Shown here: in pieces, positions 1-24,849 of the stretch | Layout: the number at the start of each line of letters is the position of its first letter | Numbering within the stretch: the first letter of the stretch is position 1 | NCBI GenBank assembly: GCA_008632985.1 | Contig: QPGO01000330.1 | Coordinates: 1 to 53,433 of the forward strand | Reading direction: 5' to 3' | Length of the DNA: 53,433 nucleotides | Origin: Psammoneis japonica | Taxonomy: Eukaryota | Translations under genes and position numbers: made by a program | The notes under the pieces: model-generated | What the model was told of the DNA's origin: nothing | Database searches by the model: none | The model's input: the letters and a program-made list of their open reading frames with translations, nothing else

Positions 1-1
1 C

Positions 2-2187
2 CCAAATAACTCAGGTGGAGGCCTTCCTCTTCACATTGCTTGTCGTAATTATGCTTCTATCGGTGTCATCACGGCTCTTCTTGCGGAGAACTTTGCGTCG
101 GCCAAGAGGACCGACGAAAACGGCGATCTTCCGCTACACCTACTTCTTCGTTGTGGCGAAGTCGTTGATCAGGTTGTGGTCAAGACGTTGTTGACTTGCT
201 TTTCTTCGGCGGTGTCGCGAACCGATATGAATGGAGACCTGCCTCTGCACATTTCAATTAAGAATCAATGCAGATCGGCAGTGATCAACACGATTATCAT
301 GCAGTTCCCAGAGGGTGCTGGAGTTCTAAACGGAGACGGTCACAGCCCGCTCTTTTTGGCGTTCCAGCACAATGCAGACGACAGGACGATTATGGGCTTG
401 CTCAATCATGCACCAGAGGTACGTGTTGGAACGGTCGCCTATGTAGATCGAGTTTCCTTCTTCGTATTCTCACTAGCCGCCTCTTTGTTCTCCTTCTACA
501 GCTTGCAACTTCCGTTGATCGGAAGACTGGCTTGCTTCCCATTCAGGTCGCTACTGAGAACGAGCATTCTCACTTTATTGTTCACAATTTGTTGAAGCGT
601 GACATGCCGATCGACCTTAAGGAAAAGGTTCGGGCCCAGCTCCTCCCTCACCACTATTCGTGGAACCACATTGTCTCGAACACCGACGACCTCTATCACC
701 AGGTTGTAACGAAAATCCTGCAAACTTGTACGCAGCCCCAGGTGCTTGCCCTTGCGCACGTCGAGGGTCCCGATGGTAGGATTGCTCTTACGGCCGCTTC
801 GCCTGTTTGCAAACATGAGCTTCGTGTCATGCTCCGTCTGTTCAATACTTTGGAAGTCGTGAATCAACGACCGGCGTACACGAATCCAGTGAGCGATACG
901 CAGATCTTTTATGCGCTGCGCTACGAACCACCCAAGCAGCAAGGCAGTGGCTTTACGGTGCTCCACGATGACAAAGTCGACGGCGGGGACAATGACTATG
1001 TGGAAGATTGGGACGATTCGTCTCAGGTCTCTGCGGTATCTCGGAATAGCATGAGATCTACGCTTAGCACTAAGTCCCAACAGAGTATCGAGGACAAGCT
1101 GCGCCGAATTCGCAAAGAGAAGGGGCAACAAGTTATTGCGAAGTTGACTTCAAGGTCTGATGTCGTTGAACGTGAACTGAAAGTCCGAAAAGATTACCAC
1201 CTGTCGAGGCACTATGTGCCAGCCATTATTAGTGTCCACCACACAGTGCAGCATGCTGCGTACTCGGAGGCTATGGCGGAGCCTGGATACTGCATCACGA
1301 TGGAAGGCGCCGATACAACCGCCGAGAATCTCATGCTGGACACTCGCAAGTCCGGAAAAAAGTTCCCCGAGAAGGCGCTAAAGAGGATTGGTATTTCGCT
1401 GCTGCACATGCACGAGCACGGACTTATTCATGGTGACTTTGGAACTCACAATATTGGCAAGTTTGGAAGCCGATGGAAGTTGCTGGGAGTCGGTGGGAGT
1501 GTCAGGATTGGAGAACCGACAGATCCAAATCGTGGATTTTACCACCCGCCAGAAGCTATCGTAGTTGACAACAAGCGCGCTGCGATTGGTAAGAAGAATG
1601 TCTCCGCCTGCGTAGTCTCGATCTCGTCCCACACAACGTACGATATTTGGGCATATGGGGTCGTTGTATACGAGGCTATTGCGGGTCTCCCACTCTCCCC
1701 GTATGCATGCCGAGGCAAGCGAGCCATGAGTTCTTCGGAAGTTAGTAAGGTCGGTCTTTGGGATGACAGCAGCCTGAGGAAGGCGCTCAAACATGTACCC
1801 CAGGAGAATGAGGTGGCCCGTCACTTGTTGAGGAAACTCTTGCATCATGACCCTGACCAACGCGTCCAGTCGATGAGGGAAGTCTTGGAACACCCTTTGT
1901 TCACTGGTGGGAAGTTGGAGATTGAGAATAAGCCTTCGTTTGAGGAGAAGCTTTCTGATGAGAGGGATTCCTTCCGCCATGGTACTAGTTCTCGTCCGCC
2001 ACGAGACGCAGCTTTAAACATCAAGTCGTCAAGTTCAGGTGGTCACAGCGACAGCACAAATGACGAAAACCAGTTGAACGGTGTTCAGTCGGCAGGTCGC
2101 TCCAAGCCTGCTAGTAGTAGACTTCCCAAGCCGACTCCAGGAGGTGAAGTCGGGAGTGTCCGCAGTTCTCGTTCGATGAGGAGCTAA
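2..2187 (+). CDS. Ankyrin-repeat plus protein-kinase-like protein, 5' partial; exons <2-418 and 502-2187, intron 419-501
   Basis: The frame from base 2 gives ankyrin-like units (GGLPLHIAC, NGDLPLHLLL, NGDLPLHISI, GHSPLFLAF). A GTACGT...CTACAG intron joins in frame to LATSVDRKTG. The C-terminal part has kinase-fold motifs (LLHMHEHGLIHGDF, YHPPE, YDIWAYGVVVYE, LLHHDPDQR...EVLEHPLF). Confidence 0.85.
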
Positions 2188-2859
2188 TTTTCATTATACC
2201 TGTCATTTTTTCAGCATGGACATCTAGGACTGCGAGTGCTGAAACTGTCCTTTCATGCCAAAAATCTACATGGCATGAGTCCTTCGTTATTATTTGTTCA
2301 ATTGAGGAATCAAATCCTGAAGGTTTCAGTGTCTAGCAGGGCACAGAGAGGGACGACCAATGGATGTACCGGCACTGCGAGCGCATGCAATGGCTTCACC
2401 ATTGCGACTCATGCATAATAAAGCAGCGGTCTAAATTATATAATGCAGAGCGGGGGTTTTGGGGGGTTACTCTATTCCGTTCGCAAGTGATTGCGATGGT
2501 GGCCATAGAATTTGCCATTGCTCAGGCGGGTATTGCTGCTGCTTCTTTTTCGATTCGCATCATGTAGGTGGGAACTGCCTCCTCTTGTTTTGTGCTGTGC
2601 AAGTAGAGCTTGTGATCTGTTTTGTCATTGTGTTGGTTGCCGGTGGTGGCCTTGTTGGGAGCACAGTGCGATAAAAGGGTGCTCCGGTTGATGCGAATTC
2701 TTGCAGACCGCGTCTCGTCGCAGTTGTCTTTCGACAAACTCAATTGTGTGAGGTTTTGTCTGTTGAGCGCACTCCATCTCCGAACTGTCCATTGAGAAGC
2801 AGCAGCTTCTTCTTGTTGTTACTCATTCTAATGTCACTCACCAACTTGTCTCCTGTAAA

Positions 2860-4760
2860 TGGGCATCCAATGCACAAATGGGCATCCAATGCACACTTGC
2901 AGAAAGGCACCAAACTGGCTGAATCCCAGTTGGGACTGACAGGACCAGCATGCTGGAAGCAAAGGCGACAACCATGTGGGGCACTGCAGATGATTCCAAG
3001 TTTGTGTTGGGGTGCATCATGGGTGGTGGAGAGGGGCTTTTGCCAGGCTGCTGCTCTCCAGGTGCAGACACCTCTCTGTTGCCTCTGGGGATGGGTCATG
3101 GGATTGAATCTTGAGGCGCATTCTCAAACAAATCAAATGCAGCAAATGTGGAAACAAAATTGCCACGATTTGAGCAGACATGGTCAAAATCTTCAGCATT
3201 GGTGATGCCGGTCCATTGTGCAATGCCGGGCCAGATCAGATCCCAAGAAGTTGTCGGGATGAGCTGTCCTCTTCCAACATCAACTTTGCTGTTCTCAGAC
3301 ATGTCGGAAGGACCACACTCTCCCAAGATTCTGCCACCCTTGATGGCTCCACCAGCCACAAAGCAGTTGCCACCCCAGGCATGTTCCACGCCATTGCCAG
3401 AGTTTTGAGGGAGTGTTCAACCAAATTGCAAGGTTTGCAATGTGGCCACATTGTCTCACAAATCCTTGGATTTCAATGTTGACCACTGCAGCATCAAAAG
3501 CAGCTGCAGCGTGCTTCCTGTTCTTGGTGCTGAGCCTTCCCAATGTCAAAAGAGTGGTGAGCTCATCAACAATTGCTCCAGAATTTTCACCTGAGGGTTC
3601 ATGCATGAACATTTCTGAAGCTCTGCCAAACTTCTTGTCATTCCATGTCGGCAGCCTCCGCAGCCCACCAGAGGGTCAGAAAAGACACCAAAACCAAGCT
3701 GATGCCCAGCTCTCATGTCATGGAAACAAGGAGAGAGGCCACATTGAACTGAGCTGTGCAAACCATTGATGAGGTTGATGCTCTTGGACACGTCAAGCAT
3801 CTGTGCTTTGGGTGCCACAAGTGCTGATGCACTTGACACAGATCCTTCAGGTGCAAACTCCAGCAGAAAGAAGCTGAGAGTGCAGACATGTGCTTGTGCA
3901 CCATTTGTCCAATGCATTTGTTCAAATCCCTGAACACAGCCAATGGAATTTCAACATTCTGCGCTTGCTGTCTCCCATTTGAAAGTCCAAACCACACATT
4001 GAGCCAACGACTCTCATGACAGGCTTGCGGATCAAGCTGAAGGAAGGGCATGCACCAAGCACTGCAGATTGGGCTTCATGATCAAGAAGAATCAAGGTGA
4101 CCATGGCGGCCAACAAATCCCAGTGTTCTCTTTTTCCACATCTGATTCCCTGTGACTGGCAGGAGCCACGCTGAAATGCCGCAGTGCACGCCTTCACACA
4201 TGCCATGGACTTGGGTTTGAGGTGCCAAAGCATTGGATGAAACAAACACACAAAAAGGGTGCAGTGTTTGAATGACAAAAGCAATGCTGCAATGTTGCTT
4301 CTGTCTCACACATGGCATCTCTTGCCATTGCTTCTGATGGCACAAAGCTCACAAAATGGACAGGGGTCCTGAATGAATTTCCATTCCTCTTGCCTTTCCC
4401 ATCATCAGAGGCTGCAACATGTTGATGTCCGCTTTCATTTGCATGTTTTGATGCTTTTCACTTTGTGTTTTTCATTCCAGCTGTTTTTGTGAAACAACGT
4501 TCCAAATTTGATTTCACAGTGCATTTGTTGTTTGTGTTTCATGTGTGTCTTTGTTGTCTTTTGCTCTTGATCAATTTTGTGAACTGATCTGTTTTAAATC
4601 ACAATTGCTTTTGATTGTTGAATTGTTTTTTGACAACATTTGCCCTTTTCTTTTGATGCATTGGCTTTGAAATTGCTTTTCAATGGCACCACCGACGTGT
4701 TCCAGCCGCACGTGAACCAAATCGTGCACAAAAACGACATTTGCGCGATTTTTGCGCGGT
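2860..4760. other. TpA-depleted hypermutated domain 1
   Basis: I find no TA between ~2858 and ~4593, then one TTTAAA. TG/CA are in strong excess and CpG is also scarce in the core. Confidence 0.9.
3100..4050 (-). pseudogene. Degraded DUF1800/DUF1501-type gene copy (internally deleted, frameshifted, Tyr->Cys/His)
   Basis: Translations EHAWGGNCFVAGGAIKGGRILGEC...GRGQLIPTTSWD (DUF1501 C-terminus, normally HAWGGNYF...GEYP) and SFFLLEFAPEG...LINGLHSSVQCGL...IVDELTTLLTLGRLS (DUF1800-like). There is an in-frame TGA where FGRTL is expected. Confidence 0.75.
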
Positions 4761-7700
4761 CCCTAACTTACGATCGAACTTTCACCACCAAAAGTAAAGA
4801 TTTATACAAATATAAATGTTTTGCAACACTAACAAGACTCGTGTGAGTGTTGCAATCTCATTGTTATTGTGCTATCTATGTTTTTCATTGCGTTAAAAGA
4901 TTCGTAACACAACGGATGATTTTCGGCGAAAATATTGCCGTTATTTGGCTGTTACCTAAATATATCTTTCTACGATGCTACTTGGTAGGTTTTCTACCTA
5001 CAAAAAAATCTCAGTATAAATCTACTGACGTACAATCAGTATTGAGTCTACTGAGGAAGTTTATGATACATATCCCATGAGGATTTGAATACCCTCAAAA
5101 AACTATTTAAATGTTCATACTCTAGAAGCCTATAACAGTCAATCCGTCTAAGTATTTTTATTAAAATGCCACATACACTAAAATATACATAAATTATATT
5201 CAAAATCCGATTGTCGTTTTGTGCGTCACCTGGGATGGAACACGTCCACCCCACACATGCACCACAGCACTTGCTGGTGTCCCTTCTGCACACAAGTCAT
5301 CCCACATGTGCACTTGCCTTTGTTTTTTGTTGTTTTCCTCCAGCTTTTTGGTGCACTTCTCTCTTTGCTGGATTTTCAGCACCTGTTTGAGGAAAAAGTG
5401 GAGTGAAGCCAAAACAAGCACCCGGGTGTGGATCGATGCCATCACTGAGCCAAAGCGTGCACGCCAGCATGACATGGCAAACATGAAGGCGGTCATCTTC
5501 ATGTGTGATCTGTCACTCTGGTGTGTGTGTGTGCGTGCTTCACCATTTTGAATGATGACTTGCCAATCTGCTGTTCTAAAAGGCACAGGAAGAAAGACAT
5601 CTCTCTGCCAGAAGTGGGGGGCACTGTGCTGGCTGTGTGCAAAAAGCCACACAGCAATGAAGACAGAAGTCTCTGCCATTGTGGGATGAACTCTCTGGCA
5701 GCAAGTGCCACTGCTTTGATTGTAACTTGGTGCAAAAGGCAAGTGTCAATTGAGAAGTTGTGTGCCATGTGCCCCCTTTTGGCGCTGAGACCAATGCAGT
5801 CAATTGTTTTTTTTGACCCACACATGGACAGCTTTGCACTGGAGGACAATGCGTGTGAGACAGCAGCTGTCAAAGCTGCAGAGGGACACCATTTGTCTCT
5901 TGGTCCCAGTCAAGTGAATCTGAAGCAACCCAAAGCTTTCAAATCCAGGAGAGTTCAGAGACACTGTCTTTGCCACTCAGCCAGATGACCCGCCATTGCC
6001 ACAATTTCTTGAGCCAAAGAGTGCCACTGACTTTGGACTCTTCTGGGTGTTTCAAGGTCTCAGCATCTCATTGGAACAAACTGTCAGGGCCTTCTGAGGT
6101 GAGCAAATTTGTGACATCTTCATCACTGTGTGGCCACCCTCTTTCATGTCTCAGCTGATTTCCTTGGATGGATGCAAGGAGTGGAGAGCATTGTTGACAT
6201 GCTTGGATTTGGTGAGCTCAGAGCACTTTAGATGCTCATCATCTTGCACTCCAAAATTTGTGTTGGCACATGAATTCTTTCCCAACCCAACAGGTGTGCA
6301 GAAGCAACACAATCCGTGGGCACCTTCCTTCTTGTGAAGATCTCCAGCAGTGCACTTCTTGGACTGTGCCTTTGGGTGGAGCAACAAGGATGTGGCACCA
6401 CTCCAAAACTCAATGTTTGGGAGGACATGGCCGCGGCTGACCATCACAGCTGCCATCAGTGGCAGATTCTGTTCTGCCCATTGGAGTGTCCAGTGGTTGT
6501 GGTGAGTGTCACAGTTCTTGAGTTGCTGATGCATGGGTGCATGGAATGACCAAGGTTGCAGTGGCTTGCAAGGAGTGCTTGGCTGTGGTGTGATTGTCAG
6601 TCTTGTGCTGCATTGTCTTGGTCATTGACAATTCACTGTTCTTCCCCAGAGCCAACCTGCGACACCTCTTGGCTTCTCTTGTGGACACGGCCATTTGCAA
6701 TCAGCCAAAGCTGTCTTCATTTTGTCAAGCCCAAATGGCTTGCCTTTGTTTTGAACTGACTTCTTGCCAATCATTTGAATCTCATCAGCAGAAGCAGTGG
6801 GGATGTTGCCGGAAGCGCCCCGCTCTGAGCGCATCATGGCTGCGGCATTCAATCACTTTTGGATGATCCTGTCAGCCGCTCATTGGCTGCTCAATGGAGT
6901 CATTGAGTTTTCCACTGCAAAATCAATGTCTTTGGCATGCTTTGATGTGGGAACAGCCAGCAGGACCATGTCAACAAACTCCAATTTTCTGTGCAATCCT
7001 GATTCCTTGTTTGTCGGCATTCAGAAGTTTTCATGAAATTGAGATGACGGCGCAAGATGAGGTCTCTTGTTTTGGGCATGAGTCTCTGATTGCAGCTGCT
7101 GATTTTCTTTGCACATGTCCTCCAATGCAATGAGGGGCTCCAATTTTGCCAGCACAGGTTTTTGACCTGCCGGTGCTGTGCTTGATTCTTGAGATGGAGA
7201 CGGCTTCTGGTTTTTTCTCAACTGCTCTTCCACTTGCTTCTTGCATGCCCTTTCACTGTTCAAGTGGTTGTGGACATGTCCAACATTGGGAATTCTAGCA
7301 GCTTCAGCAGCTGCCACAGTTGCTCCTTTTGTTGCCGCTTGCAAAATTAAGAGGCTGTTTTGCGCCAATGCCAGCTGGTTGTTGGCTTCCTTCAATTCCG
7401 CTTGGTCACTTTCCTCCCGCTTGTCAAAAAGTTTTGAACATTTTTCAATGCATTGTCCTGGTGTTGCATCTGTGAAGCAAATGTGGAAGCATCAAGGCAA
7501 CTGTCAAATGCATTGTCCATTTGTGACCTTCCACTTGCAGTGGCATTTTCGGCATTTTCCGTTGACGATGAAAAGCTTGATGATCCGTTAAAACGACTCA
7601 TGGCATTTTGTCAGTCTTTGGAGGTGTGATGGCATGACTCTCAGTGTTGCAGTTTTCTTTGGTGGTGTGATTGTGCCACTTGTCTGTTGGGAAGAACAAA

Positions 7701-7925
7701 CTGCTGGCATCTTGCATTGTCATTGCACTGTGGGGTTGATGCGGTGGTGCAGCGGCGCTTGGAATTCATGGGAACTTCTCACTCTTTTGCCTGGCTCCGA
7801 CGTCCCACTGGCTGCCCAACAAATTTGTAAATGAAGCTGCACTTGCTGCCGCCCCTTGATTTTCTCACCCTCGGCTCTGCCTCTTTTTCCTGCCCTGCTT
7901 GTTTGCCCCCAAGATTGGCAGCAGC

Positions 7926-8293
7926 GGCGGTTCTGGGCTGGGGAGTTGTCACCCCAGCAAAGCCTGAAGTCACCAAAACCGCCGCCACATTCAGTGGGAC
8001 AAACTCTGAAGCAGCATTGGTGGCATCAGCCATTTGAGCTGGAAGGGAGAAGGACAGATGCGCAGCCACTCACAGCCTTTAACGAACCAAGTGCCAATGG
8101 CGTTCTTTGTTGCCAGCTCATTGCCGCCTGTCGAGGCCACAAGAGCAGCTGTGATTGACCCTCCTCTCCCTCCCTGGGCTGCCTGGTGGCGGTTTTGGGC
8201 TGGGGAGTTGTCACCCCAGCAAAGCCTGAAGCCACCAAAGCTGCCACCACAGCCAGCAGGACGAACTCCCAAGCAGCGTTGGTGGCGTTAGCC
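7926..8293. repeat. Two diverged direct copies of ~107 bp (7926-8032 and 8188-8293)
   Basis: Shared GGCGGTT(C/T)TGGGCTGGGGAGTTGTCACCCCAGCAAAGCCTGAAG...AAGCAGC(A/G)TTGGTGGC...AGCCA. Confidence 0.85.
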
Positions 8294-8739
8294 ACGCTCT
8301 GCAAATGAAAAAACACACATGCCGCGCACAGTCTGGGGCGCTGCACAGCGAGCGAGCGAGCACCGGCGCTCACATCAGGAGCACAGGCGCTTGCACAGCA
8401 TCGCAGTGAGCTGCACGCATGTTGAAGACGGCGCCGTTTCTCGTTTCTCCCCGCACCACAAACCACAAACATCATCAACATGGAGCACCTGCAACGATGG
8501 CCATCGCCGCTGAAAACGAGCATTGTCGATGTTGTGTTGACACCATTGGACCTGCTGTTGTCAACCCAAAAACTGATTCACAATGAAAACAAATGGGAAC
8601 ATTCTCTTGAGCCGAAATGTGTTTCTTCATTCTCACATTCTCAGTGAGTGAATCAAATCACTCCACGGTGTTTTTGTGGTTTTCTCAACTTCTTGTTTTC
8701 CTTTGATCTTTGTCCACATTTCTCTGTGGGAAAATGTCA

Positions 8740-8925
8740 CATCATGCGGGGCATCTCAAGTTGATGCCATGTCATGCGGGCGGCTCAAGCGGATGCTGCA
8801 TCATGTGAGGTGGTTCAAGCGGATGCCACATCATGCAAGGCGGCTCAAGCGGATGCCAATGCCTTGCTGGGCGGCTCAAGTGGATGCCAACACCTTGCTG
8901 GGTGACTCAAGCGGATGCCAACATT
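8740..8925. repeat. Minisatellite, ~6 units of ~29-32 bp with core GGCGGCTCAAGCGGATGCC
   Basis: The core is directly visible six times, with transition variants. Confidence 0.85.
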
Positions 8926-9344
8926 GAACATTGCATGGAGTGGTCCAAGGGTGAGGAGAGTTCTTCATTTTAAAATCTACAATCTGCCACTTTTGGGAAA
9001 GCCCCAATGCAAAGGGCAGACGAGGTTGCTCTCGTCTCCAACAATTGCGAGCAACTGTGCCAAGGTGGCTGACTGCAGTGGCGCCTTGGCAATTTTTTTC
9101 TTTAAGACGGCCCACGAGAGCCAAGGGGTTGCTCCCCGGTGAGACTGAGAGTGGCACCTCCAAGGAAGGGGGTGCCACTCGACGTGCTGCAACCCGAATC
9201 TCAGTTGGACAGGGTTCGCCTGCCCTCAAAGGTGGTGATTGGTTGTTTTCAAGGAATGTGGTGGGACAGAAGGACAAAATGGCTGGATTGGATTGATCCA
9301 CAGTGCAGAATGGTTGTCGAAAAGCTTGGATGGTCGTTCGCAGT

Positions 9345-10013
9345 GGCGCTTCTAGACGCCTCTCCTCCTGTGGACGCTTGTCCATTTTCTTGTGCTTGCG
9401 CACCTTCTTGCAAAGTCGATCTTGCGCAATGCCATCAACCAATCCAACATCTGAAAGGCATTGGGCACGGGAAAAAGCAGTGCAGGTCAAACCATGCTCC
9501 TTCTCGCGGTTGGACAAATCGACGACAAAATGGGACTTGATGGTTTGGCCTTGAGCTTTCCAAACAGTCATCGCCCAGCAAAGCTTCAAGGGCAACACAG
9601 TGCGAGTGTGTTCATCACAGCCCGCATCATCTCACTTTCGAGTGTGCACGGCTGCAGTCACAGGGTGAATTGGCACCCAAACTCGGGGACTGTCATGGTC
9701 GGGGAAAAATGATCCTCCACCGCAGTCTCTGCCGAAGTCAACCCACACAAACTTTGGAAGAGATGGAGCCGAGCCTGATTCGTCATGCACAACGTCCTTT
9801 GCTGTCCCAGTTGCTCCATTGCACAATCCCGCCGACTGGGCAACATTCATGGCAAGCATTGCTCTTGCTCCGACACTGAGGCACATCGAATTCTCCAAGC
9901 CTCGAAAGGAATCAGACGTCTTTTTCTTGCCGTCACCAGTGCTTTTAGCTTGCACTGGAGCAATGGGCTTGCCAAGCCTCTGAAGATTCTTGTTGTTGAA
10001 TTCTTCCACTTCA
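9345..10013 (-). mobile_element. PIF1-family helicase C-terminal remnant (Helitron RepHel-like)
   Basis: LSVGARAMLAMNVAQSAGLCNGATG, WVPIHPVT, LPLKLCWAMTVWKAQGQT and GLTCTAFSRA correspond to PIF1 motifs (GLCNG, PL.L.WA.T.HKSQG.T, YVALSR). Confidence 0.8.
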
Positions 10014-10015
10014 GA

Positions 10016-10257
10016 ATTGAACCCATGATTTGTGAAGGGGATCGGGTGAGCAGAGTTGATGAGATGTGCGTTTGATGAGATTGCTGTCGGCTCTGTCCAA
10101 CTGTTTGCGCTGCCGTGACACAGCCAAAGCATTGACATGGCCAGACAAATGGACGGCCACCACCATTGATGGAAAGCGGTCGGCACAATTTGAGCACACC
10201 CTCTTGGTCACTGCAGATGGCGTGGAGGCTTTGATGGGGAAGATTGAAACATGCCCA
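10016..10257 (+). pseudogene. Methionine aminopeptidase type 1 C-terminal gene fragment with an intron (10046-10123)
   Basis: IEPMICEG / GTGAG...ACAG / [37 protein letters not shown] is the MetAP1 C-terminal signature, including two metal-ligand glutamates. Confidence 0.85.
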
Positions 10258-12000
10258 TGCAGTTCTAGGAAAAAGAATCGATGGCACACAACGGCTTGGA
10301 ACGACACCGGCAGCAAAGGAACGCGAAGCAGAATTGCTGAAAGCTTCTCAAGAAAACCGTGCAACGCAGTGAGCATCAGTGTGCCATGCAAGAAATGCCT
10401 CGCAGCAACGAATGGTTGCTTGGCGTTGACAGGACAACCTCGAGGCCGACGGATGAAGACTTGTGAAAATCCTGTGAACCTTGAGTCATTCTTGAGCTGT
10501 TGTTCAGCTGCTCCCAAAGAGTCCATGATTCAGTTCTTTGAATGAGAGGATGCATCATCCCTGGGCAAGGATGGAGGACAGTCGGTCAACACATCATCTG
10601 CCATGCGGTGCAACCTTTGAGCTGTCGCTGAAGGAATGCCATGTGTCCTCACAGTCAAGCAGCCCCTGCTGGCCTGTTTTTCTTCCTCAACGCAGTCCCT
10701 GCATCAGCGGCCTGTCTCAATTTTCTTCCACCACAGCCAGCAGAGAGAATCCTTCTCGGGCCTTCAAGCAGTGTGTTCGTTGACCGTTGGGGCGCGTCAG
10801 CGCACATGTTCCAGATTTGTCCCGGTCATTTTTTGTAAATGGCATGGACACATCTTCTGCCATGGGTGTTTTGCGTGAGACAAGAATCTCCATTTGACGA
10901 CGAGGTCTCACAATTTCGTTACAATGCGATTTCATTGTGATGTTGGTGATTGACGTGCTTTTAGCACAAGAAGCCATCCCCAGCAACGCGCCGCAACCAA
11001 CCCCCGGTGCGTTCTCAATGCAAATCAAATGACCAAGAAAAAACGAAACTGCAGGAAAAGTGTGGCGCAGCATTGTGCCTTGGTTCCAACAAATCCAGCA
11101 TCACAGGACAACACAAGCAAACCAAAAGAGGACACAGGAGTCTCACTGCACGCTCTCTGCACACTGCATGCTTGAGGATGACTTGTGTCCAGTTTGTGGA
11201 GTGTCATGAGCTTTTGCAGGCTGTTGTCATTTTCTTCTGATTACAAAGTACAACGCGGTCGAGCATTCCACACCGGTGCAAGCACGCAAAGGTTGTTGTC
11301 ATTCCACAATGTTTTGTCATCCACATCCATTGCACAAGAGCACACCACCACATCCGAATGTGTGCATCAAGCTGCCATTGTCAAGACATCATCGCAAGAC
11401 GATGATTCATGGTTTGTTTCCAAACAAGGCGAAGTGGATGGGCTGCTGACTCTGTCCTGTGCCGTGCTCAGTGAAGCCAATTCGATTGCATGGCACCCAT
11501 GGAGTGTGAATGCGGAGGATGGGATGATGTGCACTTTCATGCCTTTTGCCGTCTTTTCTGTGGAGGACAAGACATGGTTGTGGCACTGGAAGGTAAAAAC
11601 TTGAGACTTCACAAATTTCATCATCTTGTTTCCAATTTGTTGCACCGGTGCATGCGTGGGATCTGGCATTGGTTTTTTGTTGGAACTTGTGCTTTTGCAC
11701 AAATTTTGATTTCAGAGCCATGGCGCGAGAGGGCGCGGCACTTGCACTGTTGCCGCAACCATCCTTTTGTTCGGGCAAAACGCACGTTGTTCATTTTGGA
11801 GCATCGGGCAATGTCAGCACAGTGATTTGTCATTGTTTGCCCTCGGGGTTTGAAGCCGTTGACGTCACGTTGCCCAGCCGTGTTGTTTGGAACGAGATTC
11901 TTCTGTTGTTTTGTTGAAACGATTGGTGTTCGGTGCCAGCCCATCATCTTTTCCAACGCATGAAGCGGATGCTCTTCCAGGCCTCAATGACGGTGCGATG

Positions 12001-12380
12001 CGTTCCAGGTCCAGGTGGGACCTCGTGCCACTGAACTGTGACATCGACAGTTTTTTGAATCACGTCGCATGTTGCGCACGTAGATTTCTACGTGATTTTT
12101 TCGATGTTTTTTGTCATTTTACGGTGCACTCATTGAGCGATCCGTCCAACAACTTTTGACATTTTTTGTTGCAGCGCAATTCTACAATGTCTTAAGAATC
12201 GCGCAGGGCAGGCGCATTTGCAAAAAAGTCGAGTGGCAAGAGGCACAATTGCACCACAAACTTGGCCGTTTGTTTGATGTTGAAGATGAACACATCCATC
12301 AATTAAATTCTCGTACTGCGGAGCTCGCACGCAGAATTCCACGGGCCCAATGTCACACGGAGTCCCACCTGGGACTGGAA
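12001..12380 (+). repeat. Dispersed ~380 bp repeat, copy A (copy B at 27553-27931)
   Basis: Colinear match from CGTTCCAGGT to CTGGAA; differences are almost all transitions. Confidence 0.9.
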
Positions 12381-13555
12381 CCCGTCGTGCAGGCATGGGC
12401 GCTGTGGATTCAGACTTTGGAGACGATGGCAAATGCCGCGACTTTGGAGGTTTTGATGATGACAGTGGCGACGTGGGCAATGCGGGTGCTCATGCCACAG
12501 ATCTTTCATGACAGGCCTGTGTTTCTTTGTTGGAAGAATCACAGACGGCACGGAGACAATGTTTGCCACCCTGCGCCTTCTGATGCAAAACGAGAGGAGG
12601 AATCGCAATGGAAACGTTGGCAAGACATGCATCAACATTTCACACTGCAGACGCCATCACAATCCCTTGGGCACGGAATTGAGTGCAACCCCAATGACCA
12701 TGTCAAGTGGGACATGCGTTCTAGACAAAAAGCACAGCGACCAATGATGTCAACAGTCTCGACGCCACCGGCACACACGTGCACATTCTCGCCTGCTCGG
12801 AAGCACAATCATCTCGAATCCGTTGGTCATTTGGCGATTGAATCTGCAGCCGCCTCTTCCTGCTCCTGCCGACCCTCAGCCAATGAGGCCTTGCCCTGTC
12901 TTGAGATCCTGCACAGATGTTCGATTTTGAGCGCCCCCTTCACAACAAGAGAAAAGATCTTTTTCGCTTTTCGCTTGGCTCCCAGCTTCTCCTCATTCAA
13001 CATTGCGCGGTCTTTGTCTTGAATCTCGATGAAGCGAGCTCTTGGACCGTTGTCCACGAGACAACCTCTTGCAGCTAAAAGGCAAGGGCATGAGTTGATT
13101 CCGCACCTGCACCCGTTTGTTTGACAATGATGATGCAATGGCCTTCTGTTTTTCCAGCAAATTTAGCTTGCTGGCTCGTTCGTGTGACATCCCAACTCAT
13201 CATCCTGAAATCCTTTGCTTTTGAGAAAAGCTTCCATGTCAGGCACTGAAACCCAGCCATCCTTGTCGGCAACTGTGTCTCTTCGAAATAAATCCTTGTC
13301 AATGCCCAGCTCCTTTCTCATTTCCTCTTCTGGGACCAAGTCACTGGCTGTTGTTGAGCAAGCATCAGGGATGCATGTGGACTTCTTCCCAACGGGAATG
13401 AGGACGCCATCGTCGCGGAGCACTCCTTTCGGCAAAAGCTTGGCTCCACTCTTGGCGTTGTCTCGCTTGAGCTTGCGTCTCATTTTTTGACATGGTCAAC
13501 TCGTTTTCATCGGCTTGCCATCTGTGGCGTCGATTGTTCCACCACCGCGAGTGGC

Positions 13556-14735
13556 TGCCCCATCGTTCGTCGAAACCTGAAAGACAGAAATGCACAAATT
13601 CAACGAGAGAAAATCATCCTTGAAATGAAACCAAGATCCGGGAAATGCACTTGCGCTCTTTTTCGTTCCGTCAATCGCATCCTTTTCCAGGTTTGCAGCG
13701 GCCTCTACATCCCCCCCAGCAAACTCCAATTCGTTGTTGGTGTGGACTGCCGGGTGCCGTTTCGTTTTCGAGTCATCGCTCGCATCCGTTGCCTCCATCA
13801 CGGCGGCATTTGCAATCTCCGTTTCGGTTGTTGGGACGCCTTCAGGGGGGCATTTCTTTCTCGTGTTGCCGCTCGCATCGTCCCCAGTGATTGCAGGGGT
13901 TGCATCAGAGTGAGATCCATTTCTGCGTGTGGCGTGCTTGTCATCTCTGTCATCCGTGGCATCCCCTGTTGCAGCACGAGGTGTCACCAAGGAAGCTCGG
14001 TCTTGTTTGCCAGAACCATGCTTGGCAGAAGGCGCTTCCAAGGAAACTCGACCCCGTTCGAAATGCACGAATTCAACGAGAGAAAATCATCCTTGAAATG
14101 AAACCAAGATCTGGGAAATGGACTTGCACTCTTTTTCGTTCCGTCAATCGCATCCTTTTCCAGGTTTGCAGCGGCCTCTACATCCCCCCCAGCAAACTCC
14201 AATTCGTTGTTGGTGTGGACTGCCGGGTGCCGTTTCGTTTTCGAGTCATCGCTTGCATCCGTTGCCTCCATCACGGCGGCATTTGCAATCTCCGTTTCGG
14301 TCGTTGGGACACCTTCAGGGGGGCATTTCTTTCTCGTGTTGCCGCTCGCATCGTCCCCAGTGATTGCAGGGGTTGCATCAGAGTGAGATCCATTTCTGCG
14401 TGTGGTGTGCTTGTCACAACTCCTCTGTGCCAGCTTTGTCGATTGCAGTGTTGTCGTTGTTCCTGGTTCGAAGGTTGGCGTGAGCAACCGCCCCATCGTT
14501 CATCAAAACCTGAAAGGCAGAAACAACCGAATTCAATGAGAGAACATCATCCTTGAAAAGAAATCAAGATCCGAAATGGACTTGCATTCTTTTTCGTTCC
14601 ATCAATCGCACCCTTTTCTGCGTTTGCAGCGGCCTCTGCACCCCCCCCAGCAAACTCCAATTCGTTGTTGGTGTGGACTGCCAAGTGCCGTTTTGTTTTT
14701 GAGTCGTCGTTTGCATTTGTGGCCTCCATCACGCC
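13556..14735. repeat. Three tandem-arranged copies (13556-13943, 14060-14416, and a more diverged 14488-14735)
   Basis: Copies 1 and 2 are offset by 473 bp and nearly identical. The repeated peptide ATDASDDSKTKRHPAVHTNNELEFAGG appears on the minus strand. Confidence 0.9.
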
Positions 14736-15270
14736 AATGGTGGCAGGCTCAGCGGTGTGCTGGGTGGCTGTGGTGGGCTCTGATGATTCAACAACGGAAA
14801 CTTCGCTTGTTGGCTTGCCAGGTCCACAATCTTCTGGAAATGCATTGCCGTTGTTGCCTGGTTTGACAGATCCGTTGACATCCAGCTGAGTTTTGCCATT
14901 GCTGTCGGGCCCGGAGAAGGAATCAACGCCTGGCATGTTGCACTCTTCAGCGGGTGATCCATCTCGGTTTGAGGGTGGCAGTGTGGCATTGTCCCCTTCA
15001 CGTCCTTCAGCTTTGTCACCCTCTCTCCCAACTGCAGCAGATGCTTTCACTGACAGCGCTCTGCTTGGTTTGCCCGGCAAAACTTCGGCTGGCTCTGGAC
15101 ATCCATTGGAAGCCTCCCTCGGCTTTTCAGTTGTGTTCGCGTCTAGCATGACAACGGTGGCAGCTGCAACATCTTGGCCACGAGAGATCTTCTGTCGTTT
15201 GGTCGTTGTGCGGTCCACAATTCTCTTGATCTCATGTCTCTTGTTTCCGGACAGCCAGACTCCATCCTTC

Positions 15271-15663
15271 NNNNNNNNNNNNNNNNNNNNNNNNNNNNNN
15301 NNNNNNNNNNNNNNNNNNNNNNNNNNNNNNNNNNNNNNNNNNNNNNNNNNNNNNNNNNNNNNNNNNNNNNNNNNNNNNNNNNNNNNNNNNNNNNNNNNNN
15401 NNNNNNNNNNNNNNNNNNNNNNNNNNNNNNNNNNNNNNNNNNNNNNNNNNNNNNNNNNNNNNNNNNNNNNNNNNNNNNNNNNNNNNNNNNNNNNNNNNNN
15501 NNNNNNNNNNNNNNNNNNNNNNNNNNNNNNNNNNNNNNNNNNNNNNNNNNNNNNNNNNNNNNNNNNNNNNNNNNNNNNNNNNNNNNNNNNNNNNNNNNNN
15601 NNNNNNNNNNNNNNNNNNNNNNNNNNNNNNNNNNNNNNNNNNNNNNNNNNNNNNNNNNNNNNN
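15271..15663. other. Assembly gap (N run)
   Basis: Run of N characters. Confidence 1.
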
Positions 15664-18255
15664 TCTCTGAAAACCGGAGCTTTTTGCGTTTCAGTCCCTG
15701 TCACACCCGGTCTGATGCCACTCTTGTTTTCACTGTCCAAAGCCAACAAGGCAGCTTTTCTGCGCCTGTGCCCGGTGAGCAACTTCGAGGGCTGGCACCA
15801 ATTCTTCCGCCATCTCCAAAACGGAACGAGCCCGTCGTGTGCAGTTGGCAGATTTCCATTGTTCGTCTGATGCAGATTCTTCCTCACCGTCTTGATCTCG
15901 TTCAGTTGCTGCTGAGGATTGGCAGCAGGTTGCTTTCGAGGAGCAGAGGGCACAGAGCCACGAGACAACACTTGATGTTGTCTTGGAGGATGTTGATTGC
16001 GGTTGTGGATGCTTCGAAGCGGACCTCCTTGCAAAGAAGAATGCTTCACATTGACCGTCGCAGTTCTGTTCAGTTTGGCGGCAGCAGTGGCACCAGACTG
16101 GTTGCTTGCTGCACGTTCTCTCAACAAACCCGCAATCATTCCATGTGTTTGCTCAAATTGATCCCGGTTTGCTTTTGAATGTTGATGGAGCTGAGGCGGT
16201 TTTTTTGCCGGCGTGTCTGGTGGAACCGTGAACTTCACATCACTCTGCATCTTCCAGTGCTGCAAACTGCAAAGATTGAAACAATGGACATTAGAAGGAT
16301 CGTTGGTCACAGTCAAACATTGTGCGACAAAGCGACTCTTGCCTCAAATGGTGCCGACGGAGACGTGCTTTTAGCTGATGTGTTTCAAAAACCATGCGCG
16401 TCAAGCTGATTTCCCTGCAGTTGTGCACTGCACAAAGAACAACGGCTTCATTAGATGAGAACAAGAAAATCAACGACAAGCATCAAACGTGACAAAGATG
16501 CAAAGAGTCGCACTTGCACTTGCATCAGCAGCAACAACAACGACAACGGCAAAGCGATTTGAGTGTCGTGGTTTTTGTGAGTGAGAGTGAAGATCGTTTG
16601 TGATTGCTGATGAAGCGCTTGGATTCCAACGAACTTTATGACGTCATGGATTTGTGGAAAATGAAGTCATTCAAATGTCAAAACTCTGAGATGTGCACTC
16701 CAGGATGAGCTCCGGTTCGCGGCCGCGGATCGCAAGCGCGCCACTGCGTGAAACACCGCGGTGCTGTTGCGGGGAATTTGATCAAATCTCGCACCAACGA
16801 TGGTGATGATTGCAACGCTAAGAAAGTCATCTAAACCTTCGATTCTGCAAGAACGCATTTGGCACACAATCAATTGGCATCTGTTGGATGGGTGTCTAAA
16901 TGCGTTCTCCACGATTTTGATTTTGTGGCGAGCTGTTGACAAACATGCCGATTCAGTCGTTTGTGATGCCATGTCACGTGCCGAGTCTTCATCAACCACT
17001 CACACGCCAGATTTTCGACACCCGCTGAGTTGAAGCCGGCGGTTGTAAAAAAGCTAAAAAACACAAATCGAAAATGGTGGTTGCACGAGCTTGCATTGGT
17101 TCGTGAAATTGGTGTGGAAGCGACCGCAGAGGAGACGGCAAGGGAGCAGCTGGGAGCAGTCCTGCGGGCAACGCAGGATGGGTTTCCAACATTTTCGTGG
17201 TCGGCGCAACAATGTGGGTCAAAAGAAAACTTCATGAATGTGAATGGAAAGACCGTCAAAGCCAGACCCAGGCATTTCCAATTTGGGGAGAGTCCACTTC
17301 TGATGAGGACTCAGCACTCGACATGTGAGCATGTTCGTGGTCGCAGTCGGTGGATCAACGACCCTGCTGCAAAAGCTCAACGGAGAGGCTGGTTGGCTTG
17401 CTTGGGCACAAGGGGAGTCCACCATGGAAGCCACTCAATTTCAGGAAAAAGATCTGCCGACAATGGCAGAAGGTTTCTTGGATTTTTTTGACCATCCTGA
17501 AGACATGGAGCGTGTTGCAGACGAGCTTCGGACAATTTTGAGGGATGGCAACTTGCTGTTTGAGCCAGACTCAAGCGCCATGGATCTTGATTCTGACAGT
17601 GATGATGCAGGCACCCGTGAAGGCAACAATTTTGTCTCTCCACCACCATCCAAGCGCCCCAGAACTGATGAGGACTCCATCATGGATCAAGACAGACGAC
17701 GAATGCGACAAAGACAGTGGCATCAACCGTGTTGAAGATCCTTGGCTCATGGCACCATTGCGGCAATTGGCAAAGGTTGATTTGAGAGCTTTCTCTGAAC
17801 TGGAATTTATTTTGCTTTCAACAGACCAGAGTGACAGCATTGGAGATGCTGCAGCAATCGTGGAGGCATGCAAGACTGGGGATTTGAGCCATCGTCCGAC
17901 ACCATCCAGCCTCTCGAGACGATGTCTGTTTTCAAGCTTCAGGCCTCCAGAAGGATCATTGAGACTGTTCGTGGTGAATTTGTGGCAACCCAGCAATGTT
18001 TCGAACCTTCTGACGATGAACCACTGATTGATTGGCTTGATCAAGTCAAGCAATTTGCAGAAGGCGAGCGATGCGGAGACTGCCACCAATGCGGCGACTG
18101 CGAGTGATGCAGAGAGTCGAGTGAGAGCTTCCTCGAAAAAAACTTCAATCGACTTCAGAATGGCATGTAAAGCATCAAGGACAGAGCAGCACAAGTCGTC
18201 CGACACGTTCGCCATTGCCACAACATTTGCTTGTCAAGAATGGGTGGGTTGCTGA

Positions 18256-19995
18256 ATGCGCTCGCCCCATCATTCCTTCGGAGAGCTCTCAAGGAAGAAG
18301 AGTTTACGTCGGAGTCGACAACTCGAAATCGTGTGCAGCGTCTTGACCCTGATTGACACTTTCCGCCTGAGACGCAATTTCCAAAAGCACTCGATGGTTC
18401 AAGATGAATGCGGCAATGACATCATGATTTACAGTTGTGACGACGACTCTACATTTCATGGTGGCAAGCGTCATGTGCTGTTCGTGACGGCGAACTCAGA
18501 GGACAAGACACCAAAATTCCATCTTGTGACGACATCGGCTTCCGTGTCAGCGGATGGTGACGGCAACTCTGATCTCAATGTCAAAGCATTGACAGATCTT
18601 TTTGGAGAAGAGAATGCCCCTCAGTTCTTCCAACACTTTGGTGGAGGATGCTCCGACAATGCTCCTGACGCCTTGGAAACAACGCAAAAAAGTTTTGAAA
18701 AGGCCACGCGCCTTGTCCCGGAAGAGGCGTGCCTGTTGAATGGTGTCACCAGACGGGCCATTGTTTGGGGCGACCCCTTTCACATTGCGAACTTGGTGGT
18801 CATGTGGGCGTCTCTCGCTGCCTTTGGAGAAACCGACCGCACCAACCATCAAGAAGTCCATCACCGACAACCAACGCAGTCATTTTTTGATGCTCTGAAG
18901 GGGAACAGAGGCCTTGCATGTTCTGTTGCAATGGAAATCTGCAAGGAGCATGACTTGCCAACAGTCGTTCCCAAAGCGGCAAGAGAGCGCCAACAATGAT
19001 GGTGTGTCAACCAATGTCAATGCAAACACTTGTTGGAATTGCATGACATGCAGTGTGGCGATGCAAGTTTCTTTCTCCTTTTTTGCAAAGAAATGGCAAA
19101 ACATTCAGGAGGACATCAAAGCGACGCAATGGAACACTGCGGCACGTTGACGAGCATGCCCAAAATTCGACTTGCTCTTCAATTTGAAGCAGAGCTTGGA
19201 TGTTTCTTTGAGCCTGTCATGGCGTGGCACTCCCGCACCGGTTTGATCGCGAACGTTCCTGGCTTTCGTGTGCTAGAAGTCCACGCCTTCTTTTTCAACT
19301 TTGAGCTGCCATTTTGGAAAAAAGCACGAGTCGAGCCAGCCAAAGCATTCCCCAAGACGTTTGCCAGGCTGTCAGAAATTGAAGATGAAGCGGCAAGAGA
19401 TGTGAAACGAGATCATGTCGTCTCTGGTGGCATTGAAGCTGGGTGCAAAGAACCAATCAAGATGACGAGGCACCATTTCAGCCCGTCCAACATGTTTTTG
19501 GTCCTTGTTGCTGAGCACGCACAATGTTTTGCTCGCGTGTCACTCCGGTTCCTCCGTGAACATTCCGACAACTTGCGATTTGCCGTGGAGGATGCGGGTG
19601 TGTCACAATTTGATGAGCCAGCAGGGCTTGAAGATGAGTTTGCCAAGTTGCTGGAGGTCGACATTGATGGCGTCATTCATTGTCTTCAGCAACTCGGGTT
19701 GTCAAAGCATCGCGCTTTTTCCAAAATCAAGAAGCTCTCATTGGATGAAGAAAACACCGGCCACCTTTTGGATTTTAAGGAGGCACATCCAGCCATGTTC
19801 ACGACATTGCATTCCACATTTGGGCTCTTGCCATCAGCAAGTTGCCCAGCGGAGCAAACGATGGCGATGCTCCGAGGGCATCTTGGACTCAAGACTGCAA
19901 CTTCATCGCACACGAGCACAGACCAACGCCAGCGGCATTTGATGAATGTTGAGCATGACAACCGAGTGGCAAGGCGGAAGAATGTTGAGAACTGA
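18256..19995 (+). mobile_element. Degenerate hAT-like DDE transposase
   Basis: Motif order DDDSTFHG ... GGGCSDNA ... DPFHIANL ... QQ*W (RW with CGA->TGA) ... LLPSASCPAEQTM resembles hAT D, D(N/G)A, CxxH..L, TRW and P.S...ER motifs. Confidence 0.6.
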
Positions 19996-21036
19996 CATGA
20001 CAAACGCCCAACCAGTGGTTTCAAGCATGAGAAAAGCAAGTTGGAGCAGCGAATGGTTGGGGAGCAAATGATGGAGTCAATGGGTGGATGCGAGGACGAA
20101 GTGTTGGCTGAAGAGCTGACCAAAGCTGAATTTGACAGCATCAAAACAAGACACTTGAATGACAAGGGCATCATGGGGAAAGACAAAGCATGGATTGAAG
20201 CCCAAAATGCGAGGGCTCTAGAGAAGGCAGCCCGAAAAAAAAAAAGCCCAGCAAGACGGTGATCGATTTTGAGACTGAAGGCTCGGAAGAAACTGTGGAC
20301 AACGACGAGAGCTGGGCTGCATTCGAGCAAGCCGAGCTCAACAAACGTCGCAAGGAGCTTGCCACCCAAGCCTTTTGGGCAAGAGCCAGTCACTGCAAGA
20401 CATTCTCATGGTGTGCCAAGAAGTCTTTCCAGGGATGCAAAAGCTTCAACCAGGCGGCAGGGGGAAGCTCACCAAGCAAGACGGGCATGAAAGCTCTGAC
20501 AAAAGATTGGCTGTCTGCTGAAGGAGCTGCTGCAAAAATGAACACAGCTGCTGCAGCTGGACTTGAGCATAAAAAGTCTGAGTCCAGCGCAGCGAAGCAG
20601 AAAGAGGCAATGCGGGGTTTGTTTGATGTGGCTGGGTCGGAAATTGGCCAGCACCACTTTGAAGCTTGCAGCAGTGCACGACACTGTGCTGTGTTTGCTT
20701 GGCATGAATCACATGCAATCCTGATGGCATGTGTTGCTTCTCCCCAATCACTGGTCGTGTGCTCAGTGAACACTCGTGGGAAGGATGAGATTCGAAGTTG
20801 GGTGATGTGGGGCAGGTCGTTTCGGAACGAAAAATGTCCATTTTGTTTTCACAAAGCATGGCCTGTCGAGCTGCAATGAGTGCACCATGATCTTAGGATT
20901 GCAAACTGTCATAAATGTTGCCCTTGCTAATCACCTCTACTCTAGAGCAGTGGGCCCTCTAGAGATTAGAGCATGCCGCAACGTTCCTGTTGTCCGCAAC
21001 GCCTGTAGAAATGGCACGAGCGGGCGTGCAAGTTTT

Positions 21037-21096
21037 ACTCGTGACTTCGAATCACGAGTCGAGAATGTATGTTGACTCATTCGATTGAATGAGTCA
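21037..21096. promoter_or_regulatory. Two adjacent perfect palindromic stems: ACTCGTGA-7nt-TCACGAGT and TGACTCATTC-4nt-GAATGAGTCA
   Basis: Inverted repeats at 21037-21059 and 21073-21096. Their regulatory function is only inferred. Confidence 0.5.
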
Positions 21097-22213
21097 CGAC
21101 TCGGGAATGAAAATGGATCCATTCGACTAGAATTTATGAAACTAAAAATGGTTAGACTTTGACCCCCCACTCGAGACAGAAATGCACAAGATGTGAACCT
21201 TATCGGTCTCCTGCCCTTTAAAACAATGTCTTGCGAGAATAGAATAGCCATGTATTGTTCATGGTGTCAGGTATTTGAAAATGGAACTAACTTTTCGCGG
21301 AGCACCTTTGTTGCACGTGAAAGTGCGAGGGACGATTTTTGGTGATGGCTCTGCTGCACAACTAACGCAACCTTCTACTTGCGACCCCAAAAGTTGTTGG
21401 GAACTCTGCATCAGCAAGAAAGCAGGTATCATGTAGTTAATGCAGTCGTACGAATGAGGGGTGGTTGTCACGCGCAAGAGATTGCAGGCTGTGCGCGCGA
21501 AATTTGAAACAGTTGTGGCACCGTTTTCGGGGTGGTGGTGGGTTTTTGTCAACTTCTAGGCATGACATCGATGTTGTAGGTGGATGGTCGGTTGGCATGT
21601 TGTCTGGAAGGGTGCGAATCGCATGACATCAGTCGGCTGGAAATGCATTTTGGAAAAAAATGGGGGGTGTGTGATCACACGTGGAAGCATGACGTTGGGC
21701 CCCATGGCAGCGCCGAGCCGCCGCAGGCCTGGCATGTTGACGTCATGCGCACATTTGCACGAGAACAATTCGTAAAAAACAACAAGTCCCGTGACGTCAC
21801 CACTGCAAAATTGTTGCGCGACGAGCCGAAGGAGTTTCATGTGTGCGACCATGATGAAACGCTGCGATTCTGGCGGCAACACGCAAGCTTGTTCCCAGCA
21901 ATGCATTGTGGCACTGCCATGTGTTCTTTCCTCAATTGCAGCACACAACTTTTTTGGATGAAAACAGTTCAAAACATCTTGTTTTCGGCTTGCAAACCTG
22001 AGGACGCGTGCAAGATCCCACTTGTTCAAGTTGAAGTTGCATCTGGATGGAAGTTCCAGTCGACCGAATTTCCGTGCTTTAATGCATTTGGACCTGATGA
22101 TGCTTTGAACTTGTTTTGAAGAGAAGCATCGCAAAATTTGGACGAGAGCATCACTTTGATGCTTCCGATCATGACACGGGTGCCGGTGCATGCCTTGTGA
22201 GGTGAGCACTCGA

Positions 22214-24480: not shown

Positions 24481-24849
24481 TGCCATGGGCGAGTGTGTCT
24501 GACCGCATGTGTGTCCTGTTCATGTTCATCAGAGTTCTTCAGAATGTTTCCCGAACACCACAAGTCTTTTCAATGACTTGTTTCAACAACGTTGAGTCTT
24601 TCCAATGACTTGTTCCAAACAACAAATGTCTCCAATGACTTGTCGTGTGTGAGAAGAACTCGGGTTTCTCCGTGCTTCAAGTGCTGCGTTCTGTCCACAA
24701 ATTTCTACGTGATCTCCGACAGACCAGCTCCAGAGATCCTCTCCTCTAACTTTGCTCACAACTCGTCTGTGAACCCAAATCACTGCGAGCACATCTCGTC
24801 TGTCAAACTGTCAACTGCTTCATCAACTGTCACCTGGCACCATTGGACA
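24481..24849 (+). repeat. 3' LTR
   Basis: Ungapped alignment to 22214-22582; preceded by a polypurine tract and followed by the TSD. Confidence 0.9.

Follow-up and report, generated by a model that had tools for sequence, protein, structure and literature searches.

We describe here a relic of a fused DUF1800-DUF1501 gene that lies in DNA devoid of the dinucleotide TA in the diatom Psammoneis japonica. The window, that is, the whole stretch of DNA that was analysed, is contig QPGO01000330.1 (53,433 nucleotides; assembly GCA_008632985.1), and the positions of its features are collected in Table 1. A tblastn search with P0002, the best database relative (1210 amino acids, with PF08811 at 424-718 and PF07394 at 744-1109), placed the relic at 3087-4388 on the minus strand (E 7e-41), and the match extended to 3003 when composition statistics were switched off. 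The first-pass annotation had proposed a DUF1800/DUF1501-type copy at 3100-4050; such a copy is indeed present, and it is larger than claimed. Residues 402-685 of P0002 matched 4388-3514 in alternating frames and residues 1050-1180 matched 3476-3087, while the N-terminal ~400 residues of P0002 are missing. The pieces are collinear with P0002 and represent both domains, in the same order as in eukaryotic fused DUF1800-DUF1501 genes.

Table 1 Positions of the features in the window discussed in the text
Feature	Position	Strand	Basis or remark
Ankyrin-repeat protein kinase gene, intact	2..2187	+	Pfam Ank, Pkinase; TA normal (36/kb)
Left border zone	2605..2856		3 TA in 252 bases
TA-free run, 1,738 bases	2857..4594		TA 0
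Least extent with ~85%-alike same-sample relatives	2982..4407	-	Contig differences from 2982; X1 record 3 covers 4010-4407
Fused DUF1800-DUF1501 pseudogene	3087..4388	-	tblastn; P0002-equivalent residues 402-695 and 1050-1180 kept
In-frame TGA at invariant Arg of SEF(A/G)RT, CGA to TGA	3417..3419	-	Arg in 26/26 homologues
In-frame TGA at invariant Trp (P0002 W1056)	3456..3458	-	Ordinary G-to-A change
Deletion junction	3477..3483	-	tblastn, Pfam, contig alignment
+2-base frameshift (extra TG)	4195..4196	-	Both reading frames of the DNA compared with P0002 SPRYVK
553-base element	4694..5246		14-nt terminal inverted repeats, 4-5 base target duplication, 51 TA
TA-poor island continuation	5247..20893		53 TA in 15,254 bases (3.5/kb)
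Decayed Pif1-type helicase	8879..10207	-	PF21530, E 4.7e-5; C-terminal motif read by eye

The copy is badly damaged. The tblastn alignment showed four frame changes, and the extra TG directly follows the former Tyr codon of the PRYVK motif, which now reads CAT. At the deletion junction about 354 codons are gone (P0002 residues 696-1049, which have no counterpart in the window), removing the end of DUF1800 together with positions 2 to about 286 of the DUF1501 profile, nearly its whole core. A 390-nt contig of the sequencing run X2 (record 11) aligns only through its positions 37-187, on 3484-3634, and the rest of it continues unaligned past the junction. With its frameshifts, internal TGA codons and deletions, the locus is therefore a pseudogene, best regarded as a relic without functional DUF1501 membership.

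The window has 226 stop-to-stop frames that are 90 amino acids or longer, and Pfam was run on 218 of them; the other 8 fall within the pseudogene (3099-4305), where five ATG-started open reading frames (ORFs) were scanned separately. Both domains score below the Pfam gathering threshold. The DUF1501 match (PF07394) reached 26.3 bits against 27 with the read-through C-terminal piece (P0001) and 15.8 bits with the ORF alone, covering profile positions 287-336 only, and the DUF1800 match (PF08811) reached 15.5 bits against 26.1 at 4388-4197, the other pieces giving no match. Despite these sub-threshold scores the descent from a DUF1501 gene is clear from the tblastn match to P0002, which carries PF07394, and tblastn homology to the DUF1800 part covers P0002 residues 402-695.

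Fused DUF1800-DUF1501 relatives were found on 80 metagenome loci, and a protein of the diatom Ditylum brightwellii (UniRef/MMETSP) belongs to the UniRef cluster of P0004, one of the database matches. The family is thus cellular rather than transposon-borne and is present in diatoms, in agreement with the first-pass view that the copy derives from a gene that is not a transposable element. Neither tblastn nor self-blastn detected a second copy of the pseudogene within the window. A protein search for near-length relatives found no closer one, the best reaching 51% identity, and blastn of the pseudogene against the 80 homologue loci gave two weak matches only (68-72%). The least extent over which same-sample relatives can be followed takes in the coding homology and, on its 3' side, a further 100 bases or so of flanking DNA.

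The dinucleotide content of the tract is extreme. Were TA as dense in the TA-free run as in the adjacent kinase gene (36.4 per kb), 63 would be expected there (Poisson 3e-28); base composition predicts 117. The neighbouring gene contains, per kb, 36.4 TA, 63.2 CG and 141.6 TG plus CA, which sum to 241.2, whereas the tract contains 0 TA, 12.1 CG and 229.0 TG plus CA, which sum to 241.1; the losses of TA (36.4) and CG (51.1) are thus balanced by a gain of 87.4 in TG plus CA. CG was counted 21 times in the tract against 100 expected. The three frames of the read-through contain 33 stop triplets, every one of them TGA. By comparison, rho TA at the loci with intact homologues ranges from 0.50 to 1.24, and 0 of the 80 is TA-poor.

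Direction of change at conserved codons and in related contigs

The first-pass annotation had claimed that conserved tyrosines of the copy read Cys or His, exactly as expected from TAY becoming TGY or CAY, and had named GGNCF, LGEC, DFDHV and GLHSSVQCGL. All four strings were found (at 3374-3360, 3326-3315, 3191-3177 and 3764-3735, respectively), and we compared their columns with P0002 and the 80 metagenome loci (up to 81 homologues). The claim stood for three of the five positions, namely the Cys of GGNCF (Tyr in 32/54 homologues), of LGEC (47/56) and of QCGL (37/61). It failed for the other two, which occupy variable columns: the His of DFDHV has Tyr in 9/54 homologues, and the His of GLHS has Tyr in 8/61 and most commonly Phe (24/61), so that at the sequence level a conversion from Tyr is not demonstrated for either. 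Intact homologues do not themselves have Cys or His at the positions concerned.

A count over all columns gave the same picture. Among the 11 columns where half or more of the homologues have Tyr, the copy has Cys (TGY) in 7, His (CAY) in 3 and Phe (TTT) in 1. In columns where 60% or more of the homologues agree, Tyr was kept in 0/8 and other residues in 116/169 (Fisher p = 1.4e-4), and a 28-protein reference set gave 0/7 for Tyr against 134/196 for the others (p = 4e-4). The 407 residues of the pseudogene read-through include no Tyr at all. Arg is the next most eroded residue, with 6 of 14 conserved positions kept and all 8 losses leading to Cys, Trp, Gln or stop via CGN to TGN or CAN. When the 69 mismatches at conserved columns were examined together, reverting TG or CA explained 25 of them (10 to TA and 15 to CG), compared with 12 for a control rule using GT and AC.

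The direction could be read independently from contigs of the same sample, for which we used X1 and X2, two runs of one sample whose Logan contigs were aligned to window positions 1-10000 at 80% likeness. One X1 contig (record 2) matches the window over 1,416 bases save 10 letters and 7 gaps, and the tract sequence is therefore not an assembly artefact. Other contigs are about 85% alike, differing from the window in 24/164, 24/151, 32/224 and 60/398 letters. At the 20 listed differing places in 2982-4352, the window has TG or CA where the relatives have TA in 6 cases and CG in 7; 7 differences are of other types and none runs in the reverse direction. The relatives thus carry TA or CG at 13/13 of the listed TA/CG-type places, and the probability of 13 or more among 20 is 0.0013 (binomial) if a chance rate of 30% is assumed. 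Two neighbouring places illustrate the change. At 3364 the window has TGC, the Cys of GGNCF, while four X1 contigs and one X2 contig have TAC for Tyr; at 3359 it has GTG (Val) instead of ATG (Met), the latter as in GGNYFM of P0002, the TA here spanning two codons. As the first-pass annotation had held, the direction from TAY to TGY or CAY can thus be established without repeat alignments, being polarised both by homologues and by same-sample contigs with TAC where the window has TGC.

X2 covers the pseudogene with the ~85%-alike contigs only, and the lack of near-identical cover there carries no information on expression. This run probably contains complementary DNA (cDNA), because one of its contigs lacks an 83-base GT..AG intron of the kinase gene and joins 416 to 500; given this cDNA-like contig, the TA-bearing relatives may be transcribed. 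Contig depths group near 60, 120, 190 and 260, which hints at several haplotypes, although depth is not a copy number and was not used as one.

One could suppose that no mutator is needed and that TA is absent because this gene family prefers certain codons or a certain composition, because of selection, or through an error of assembly. TA is in fact under-represented genome-wide, with a rho of about 0.6 in genes. We nevertheless find this explanation scarcely credible, since rho TA is at least 0.50 at all 80 intact-homologue loci, Tyr is universally present in the homologues, the independent X1 contig agrees with the window, and the broken frame makes codon selection moot.

Both strands were hit: the former Tyr codons comprise 7 TGY and 3 CAY, and TG (104/kb) is roughly as frequent as CA (122/kb) in the tract, making its strands nearly symmetric. 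This bears on a further possibility, in which a transcript was hyperedited by an ADAR-like enzyme (A to I after U), reverse-transcribed and inserted. The copy shows no intron-sized gaps in the tblastn alignment, and ADAR prefers a U before the edited A, as stated in a recent preprint (bioRxiv 10.64898/2026.01.13.699255). Editing of a sense transcript, however, gives TAY to TGY only, yet CAY stands at 3 of the 10 former Tyr positions and TG is about equal to CA; moreover, the non-coding flanks and the adjoining island are equally erased, no poly(A) trace was seen downstream of the copy, and neither the loss of CpG nor an erasure of 100% is explained. We therefore regard RNA editing followed by retroposition as highly improbable.

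Borders, insertion and neighbouring DNA

The TA-free tract is sharply confined on its left side. TA drops from the level of the kinase gene to zero within about 250 bases, and CG remains frequent up to 2781 and then falls, so that TA loss encroaches on the unique DNA by about 180 bases more than CG loss does. The tract is also wider than the DNA with recognisable homologues on both sides, beginning at 2857 compared with 2982 on the left and ending at 4693 compared with 4407 on the right.

Immediately to the right lies the 553-base element. It is missing from one same-sample contig, in which 4688 is joined to 5246 with five shared letters (side 255), and depth bins over it reach 32,798 and 5,265 compared with ~260 over the kinase gene, or up to ~125 times the baseline. 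The element is thus a young, abundant and polymorphic insertion, unmutated and resembling a miniature inverted-repeat transposable element, that splits one TA-free tract. Without it, the TA-free DNA that starts at 2857 would lead directly into the 18-kb TA-poor repeat island, which reaches to 20,893.

Inside the island the two kinds of loss come apart. TA is almost gone throughout, whereas rho CG is 0.10-0.34 up to about 7500 and mostly 0.5-1.2 beyond. Since TA loss is complete where CG is near normal (bins 8001-20500), the erasure of TA and the decay of CpG are separable, and the former seems to be the faster. CG at 5247-7500 is as depleted as in the pseudogene, with 11-18 CG per kb in 2857-5576. 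Because CG is depleted up to 7500 and nearer normal beyond, the block that holds the pseudogene would appear to be older, or more heavily methylated, than the helicase element further along the island.

This Pif1-type helicase marks transposon-type DNA in the island. Its Pif1_2B domain is the only one that Pfam recognised in TA-poor DNA among the 218 frames, and there was no match in 5247-8800. Contig depth in the region is 660-1,800, with 5-15 contigs per listed place. The fragment could be imagined as a passenger, captured by a mobile element such as this Pif1-helicase element (possibly Helitron-like, 4.5 kb upstream) and mutated with it. Captured fragments are often truncated and carry internal deletions, as this one does; it lies downstream of the helicase remnant in the same orientation, and many related contigs cover that remnant. 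We consider such a capture quite unlikely, however. The Pfam scan of the window frames found no Helitron Rep domain and Helitron termini were not found either; the CpG status given above differs between the fragment and the DNA from 7501 onward, which suggests different elements or ages; the fragment is covered by 1-4 related contigs, compared with 5-15 in the helicase region, and these contigs carry TA or CG at the listed places like ordinary genes; and no second copy of the fragment exists in the window.

To the left of the tract, the ankyrin frame (2-416) is joined in phase to the kinase frame (from 500) by the 83-base GT..AG intron at 417-499. Ankyrin repeats and kinase are one gene, because the X2 contig lacks precisely this in-phase intron. 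Three X1 contigs and one X2 contig match the window up to 2254 and then diverge, which suggests a structural haplotype difference just downstream of the kinase gene. One further contig joins 2233 to 5827 and might represent a haplotype without the pseudogene, but its side of 27 is too short and we did not use it.

Cellular genes recognisable by Pfam elsewhere in the window (MAGE, NuA4, PALP and NUDIX), like the ankyrin-kinase gene (Ank/Pkinase), all lie in TA-normal DNA. The best named relatives of the MAGE-domain gene, in the diatoms Cylindrotheca, Fistulifera, Ditylum and Seminavis, show 44-49% identity, and none is closer than 54%. The TA borders at 36613 and 50239 are sharp and lie in likely promoter DNA.

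Several other features of the TA-poor DNA were seen. At 20894-21773, 880 bases with normal TA (29) and CG (49) are flanked by TA-poor DNA on either side and may be a young insertion or a protected sequence. An assembly gap of 393 N occupies 15271-15663 inside the island. CA exceeds TG at 23001-24500 (61-68 versus 29-40 per 500 bases), and TG exceeds CA at 26501-28500 (60-72 versus 43-53 per 500 bases); this imbalance suggests strand-biased conversion in some elements, unlike in the pseudogene tract. Differences between the members of repeat pairs elsewhere in the window give no polarity for the process, since both members are TA-free already. The 226 frames of at least 90 amino acids in 53 kb include many stop-to-stop frames of 90-500 codons, which are common on both strands in TA-poor tracts. 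With TAA and TAG absent, such frames arise freely; almost none of them matches Pfam, and their length therefore carries no meaning.

Targeting and comparison with known systems

The first-pass annotation had suggested that duplicated host genes are targeted as in repeat-induced point mutation (RIP), which would limit the expansion of gene families. A RIP-like sensing of homology, with the fragment mutated as the duplicate of a host gene, could draw on the ~85%-alike relatives present in the same sample, on the mutated tract being centred on the gene copy and leaking a few hundred bases as RIP does, and on the RID-related DNMT4 enzymes that diatoms are reported to have (PMC9998398). We judge this explanation unlikely, and the data do not support the proposed targeting of duplicates. 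RIP mutates both partners, whereas the relatives here keep TA or CG at the listed places; a repeat of very high depth lies within the tract and has escaped mutation; a further 15 kb of TA-poor DNA adjoins the tract without a break once the young insertion is disregarded; the mutations run in the opposite chemical direction to those of RIP; and, according to the preprint on Bigelowiella natans, the main target of the TpA hypermutation found in that organism is single-copy (bioRxiv 10.64898/2026.01.13.699255).

We think it fairly probable instead that the fragment was mutated for its location in a targeted domain and not by a homology search that recognised it as a duplicate. The extension of the tract beyond the homologous DNA, its continuity with the island and the unmutated high-depth element fit location better than duplication. 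The dead fragment lies at the edge of a repeat island that is presumed to be silenced, and two processes have acted on the DNA there. In the first, a TpA-specific A:T-to-G:C transition has turned TA into TG or CA on either strand and has gone to completion; in the second, CpG decay has turned CG into TG or CA, likely by deamination of methylated cytosine, and is about 80% complete. Their effects in the coding frame are the conversion of Tyr (TAY) to Cys or His, of Arg (CGN) to Cys, Trp, Gln or stop, and of Met after T to Val. We infer that the TpA process acted on DNA over many rounds, aimed by a chromatin or small-RNA mark, and it would proceed within the marked domains until TA is exhausted. 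Candidate chemistries are the deamination of adenine at TpA, as proposed for Bigelowiella, or a modification of the T of TpA, which are indistinguishable here because TA is palindromic.

Several points weigh against targeting by location. The spread into the flanks and the unmutated 553-base element are also compatible with a homology trigger, as RIP too leaks into flanks and spares short repeats. The TA-free borders stand only about 60-150 bases from neighbouring genes (36,613 compared with the end of the MAGE frame at 36,555, and 50,239 compared with the start of the PALP frame at 50,386), and borders so sharp look more like the limits of elements than like a diffusing chromatin domain. Ordinary changes account for 44 of the 69 mismatches at conserved columns, which marks the copy as old and leaves no way to tell in what order the events took place. 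The polarity count from contigs rests on 20 listed differing places in the tract, and the related contigs may represent paralogous genes or strongly diverged alleles, or else, with lower probability, DNA from a second organism in the sample.

The closest known system is that of the rhizarian Bigelowiella natans. As described by Mettrop et al. (bioRxiv 10.64898/2026.01.13.699255), the DNA of an integrated single-copy giant virus (nucleocytoplasmic large DNA virus, NCLDV) and of a virophage undergoes a TpA-only A:T-to-G:C hypermutation, measured de novo in mutation-accumulation lines. The authors propose an adenine deaminase of the ADAT type and report clusters and coding sequences, some of likely host origin, that are depleted in TpA and enriched in CpA and TpG (bioRxiv 10.64898/2026.01.13.699255). 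Both cases show TpA turning into TpG or CpA on either strand within confined regions, with the rest of the genome normal. They differ in that the present organism is a diatom in which the end state alone is seen, whereas rates were measured in the rhizarian; that erasure is complete here and partial there (rho TA 0.45); that the target here is a pseudogene of a host family adjoining transposon-type DNA rather than viral integrations; and that here a CpG decay separable from the loss of TA is superimposed. In its sequence, the locus carries the TpA change signature and regional confinement of the Bigelowiella type, while the mechanism may or may not be the same.

RIP, known from Neurospora and other ascomycetes (PMC2621366, PMC7296669), resembles the process at this locus in being a thorough, dinucleotide-specific transition that inactivates repeats and copies of genes and also reaches the DNA beside them. 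It differs in that it changes C:G to T:A, mainly at CpA, and thereby creates TpA and lowers GC, whereas here TpA is destroyed (from 36/kb to 0); it also differs in hitting both duplicates, whereas the relatives here keep TA (6) or CG (7) at the listed places of this type. RIP itself was considered as a candidate and rejected, as the direction is reversed and the partner copies are spared.

The second process is more familiar. Diatom transposons are methylated, by DNMT5a, according to the literature (PMC9998398), and the deficit of CG in the tract fits the deamination of 5-methylcytosine seen in the CpG decay of methylated transposons. Such decay leaves TpA alone, whereas the loss of TA here is complete even where CG is near normal. 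ADAR and APOBEC enzymes also produce deaminase-type transitions with a neighbour preference and act against selfish elements. Their substrates are RNA or single-stranded cDNA, and the resulting patterns are confined to one strand, whereas here both strands, non-coding flanks and a gene fragment that is not a retroelement were changed to saturation.

A search of the full-text literature found no description of TpA erasure in diatoms; its only match was the Bigelowiella preprint (bioRxiv 10.64898/2026.01.13.699255), the supplementary tables of which lay outside the search. Within that literature the process belongs to a rare and barely described kind of local mutation, with a signature published for Bigelowiella natans only. 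New here are the clean polarisation from outside and three local arguments against a copy-number trigger, namely the TA-keeping relatives, the untouched abundant repeat and the continuity with the island.

Meaning for genes and a possible genome defence

A conserved cellular pseudogene offers an outside reference for the ancestral state, and it fixes both the direction and the thoroughness of the process with no recourse to repeat alignments. It also indicates that ordinary genes are not immune once they are inside a targeted domain. Since relatives keep TA and a high-depth repeat is untouched, position rather than copy number would decide what is mutated, and this sets the process apart from RIP. 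There is a practical consequence as well: TA-poor tracts hide genes and transposons from searches of the Pfam type and yield spuriously long ORFs, since the stop codons TAA and TAG are excluded from TA-free DNA.

Tentatively, and well aware that it may not hold, we put forward a wider view. Diatoms may possess a DNA-level, TpA-specific A:T-to-G:C mutator that is aimed by position at silenced repeat domains, works faster than CpG decay and irreversibly destroys gene fragments in or beside those domains; together with the Bigelowiella case, it might represent an old, SAR-wide (stramenopiles, alveolates and Rhizaria) form of genome-defence editing, a mirror-image counterpart to RIP in fungi. Should the process prove to be an active defence, diatoms would become the second lineage of eukaryotes in which DNA is edited at TpA, and this would open a route to the enzyme.

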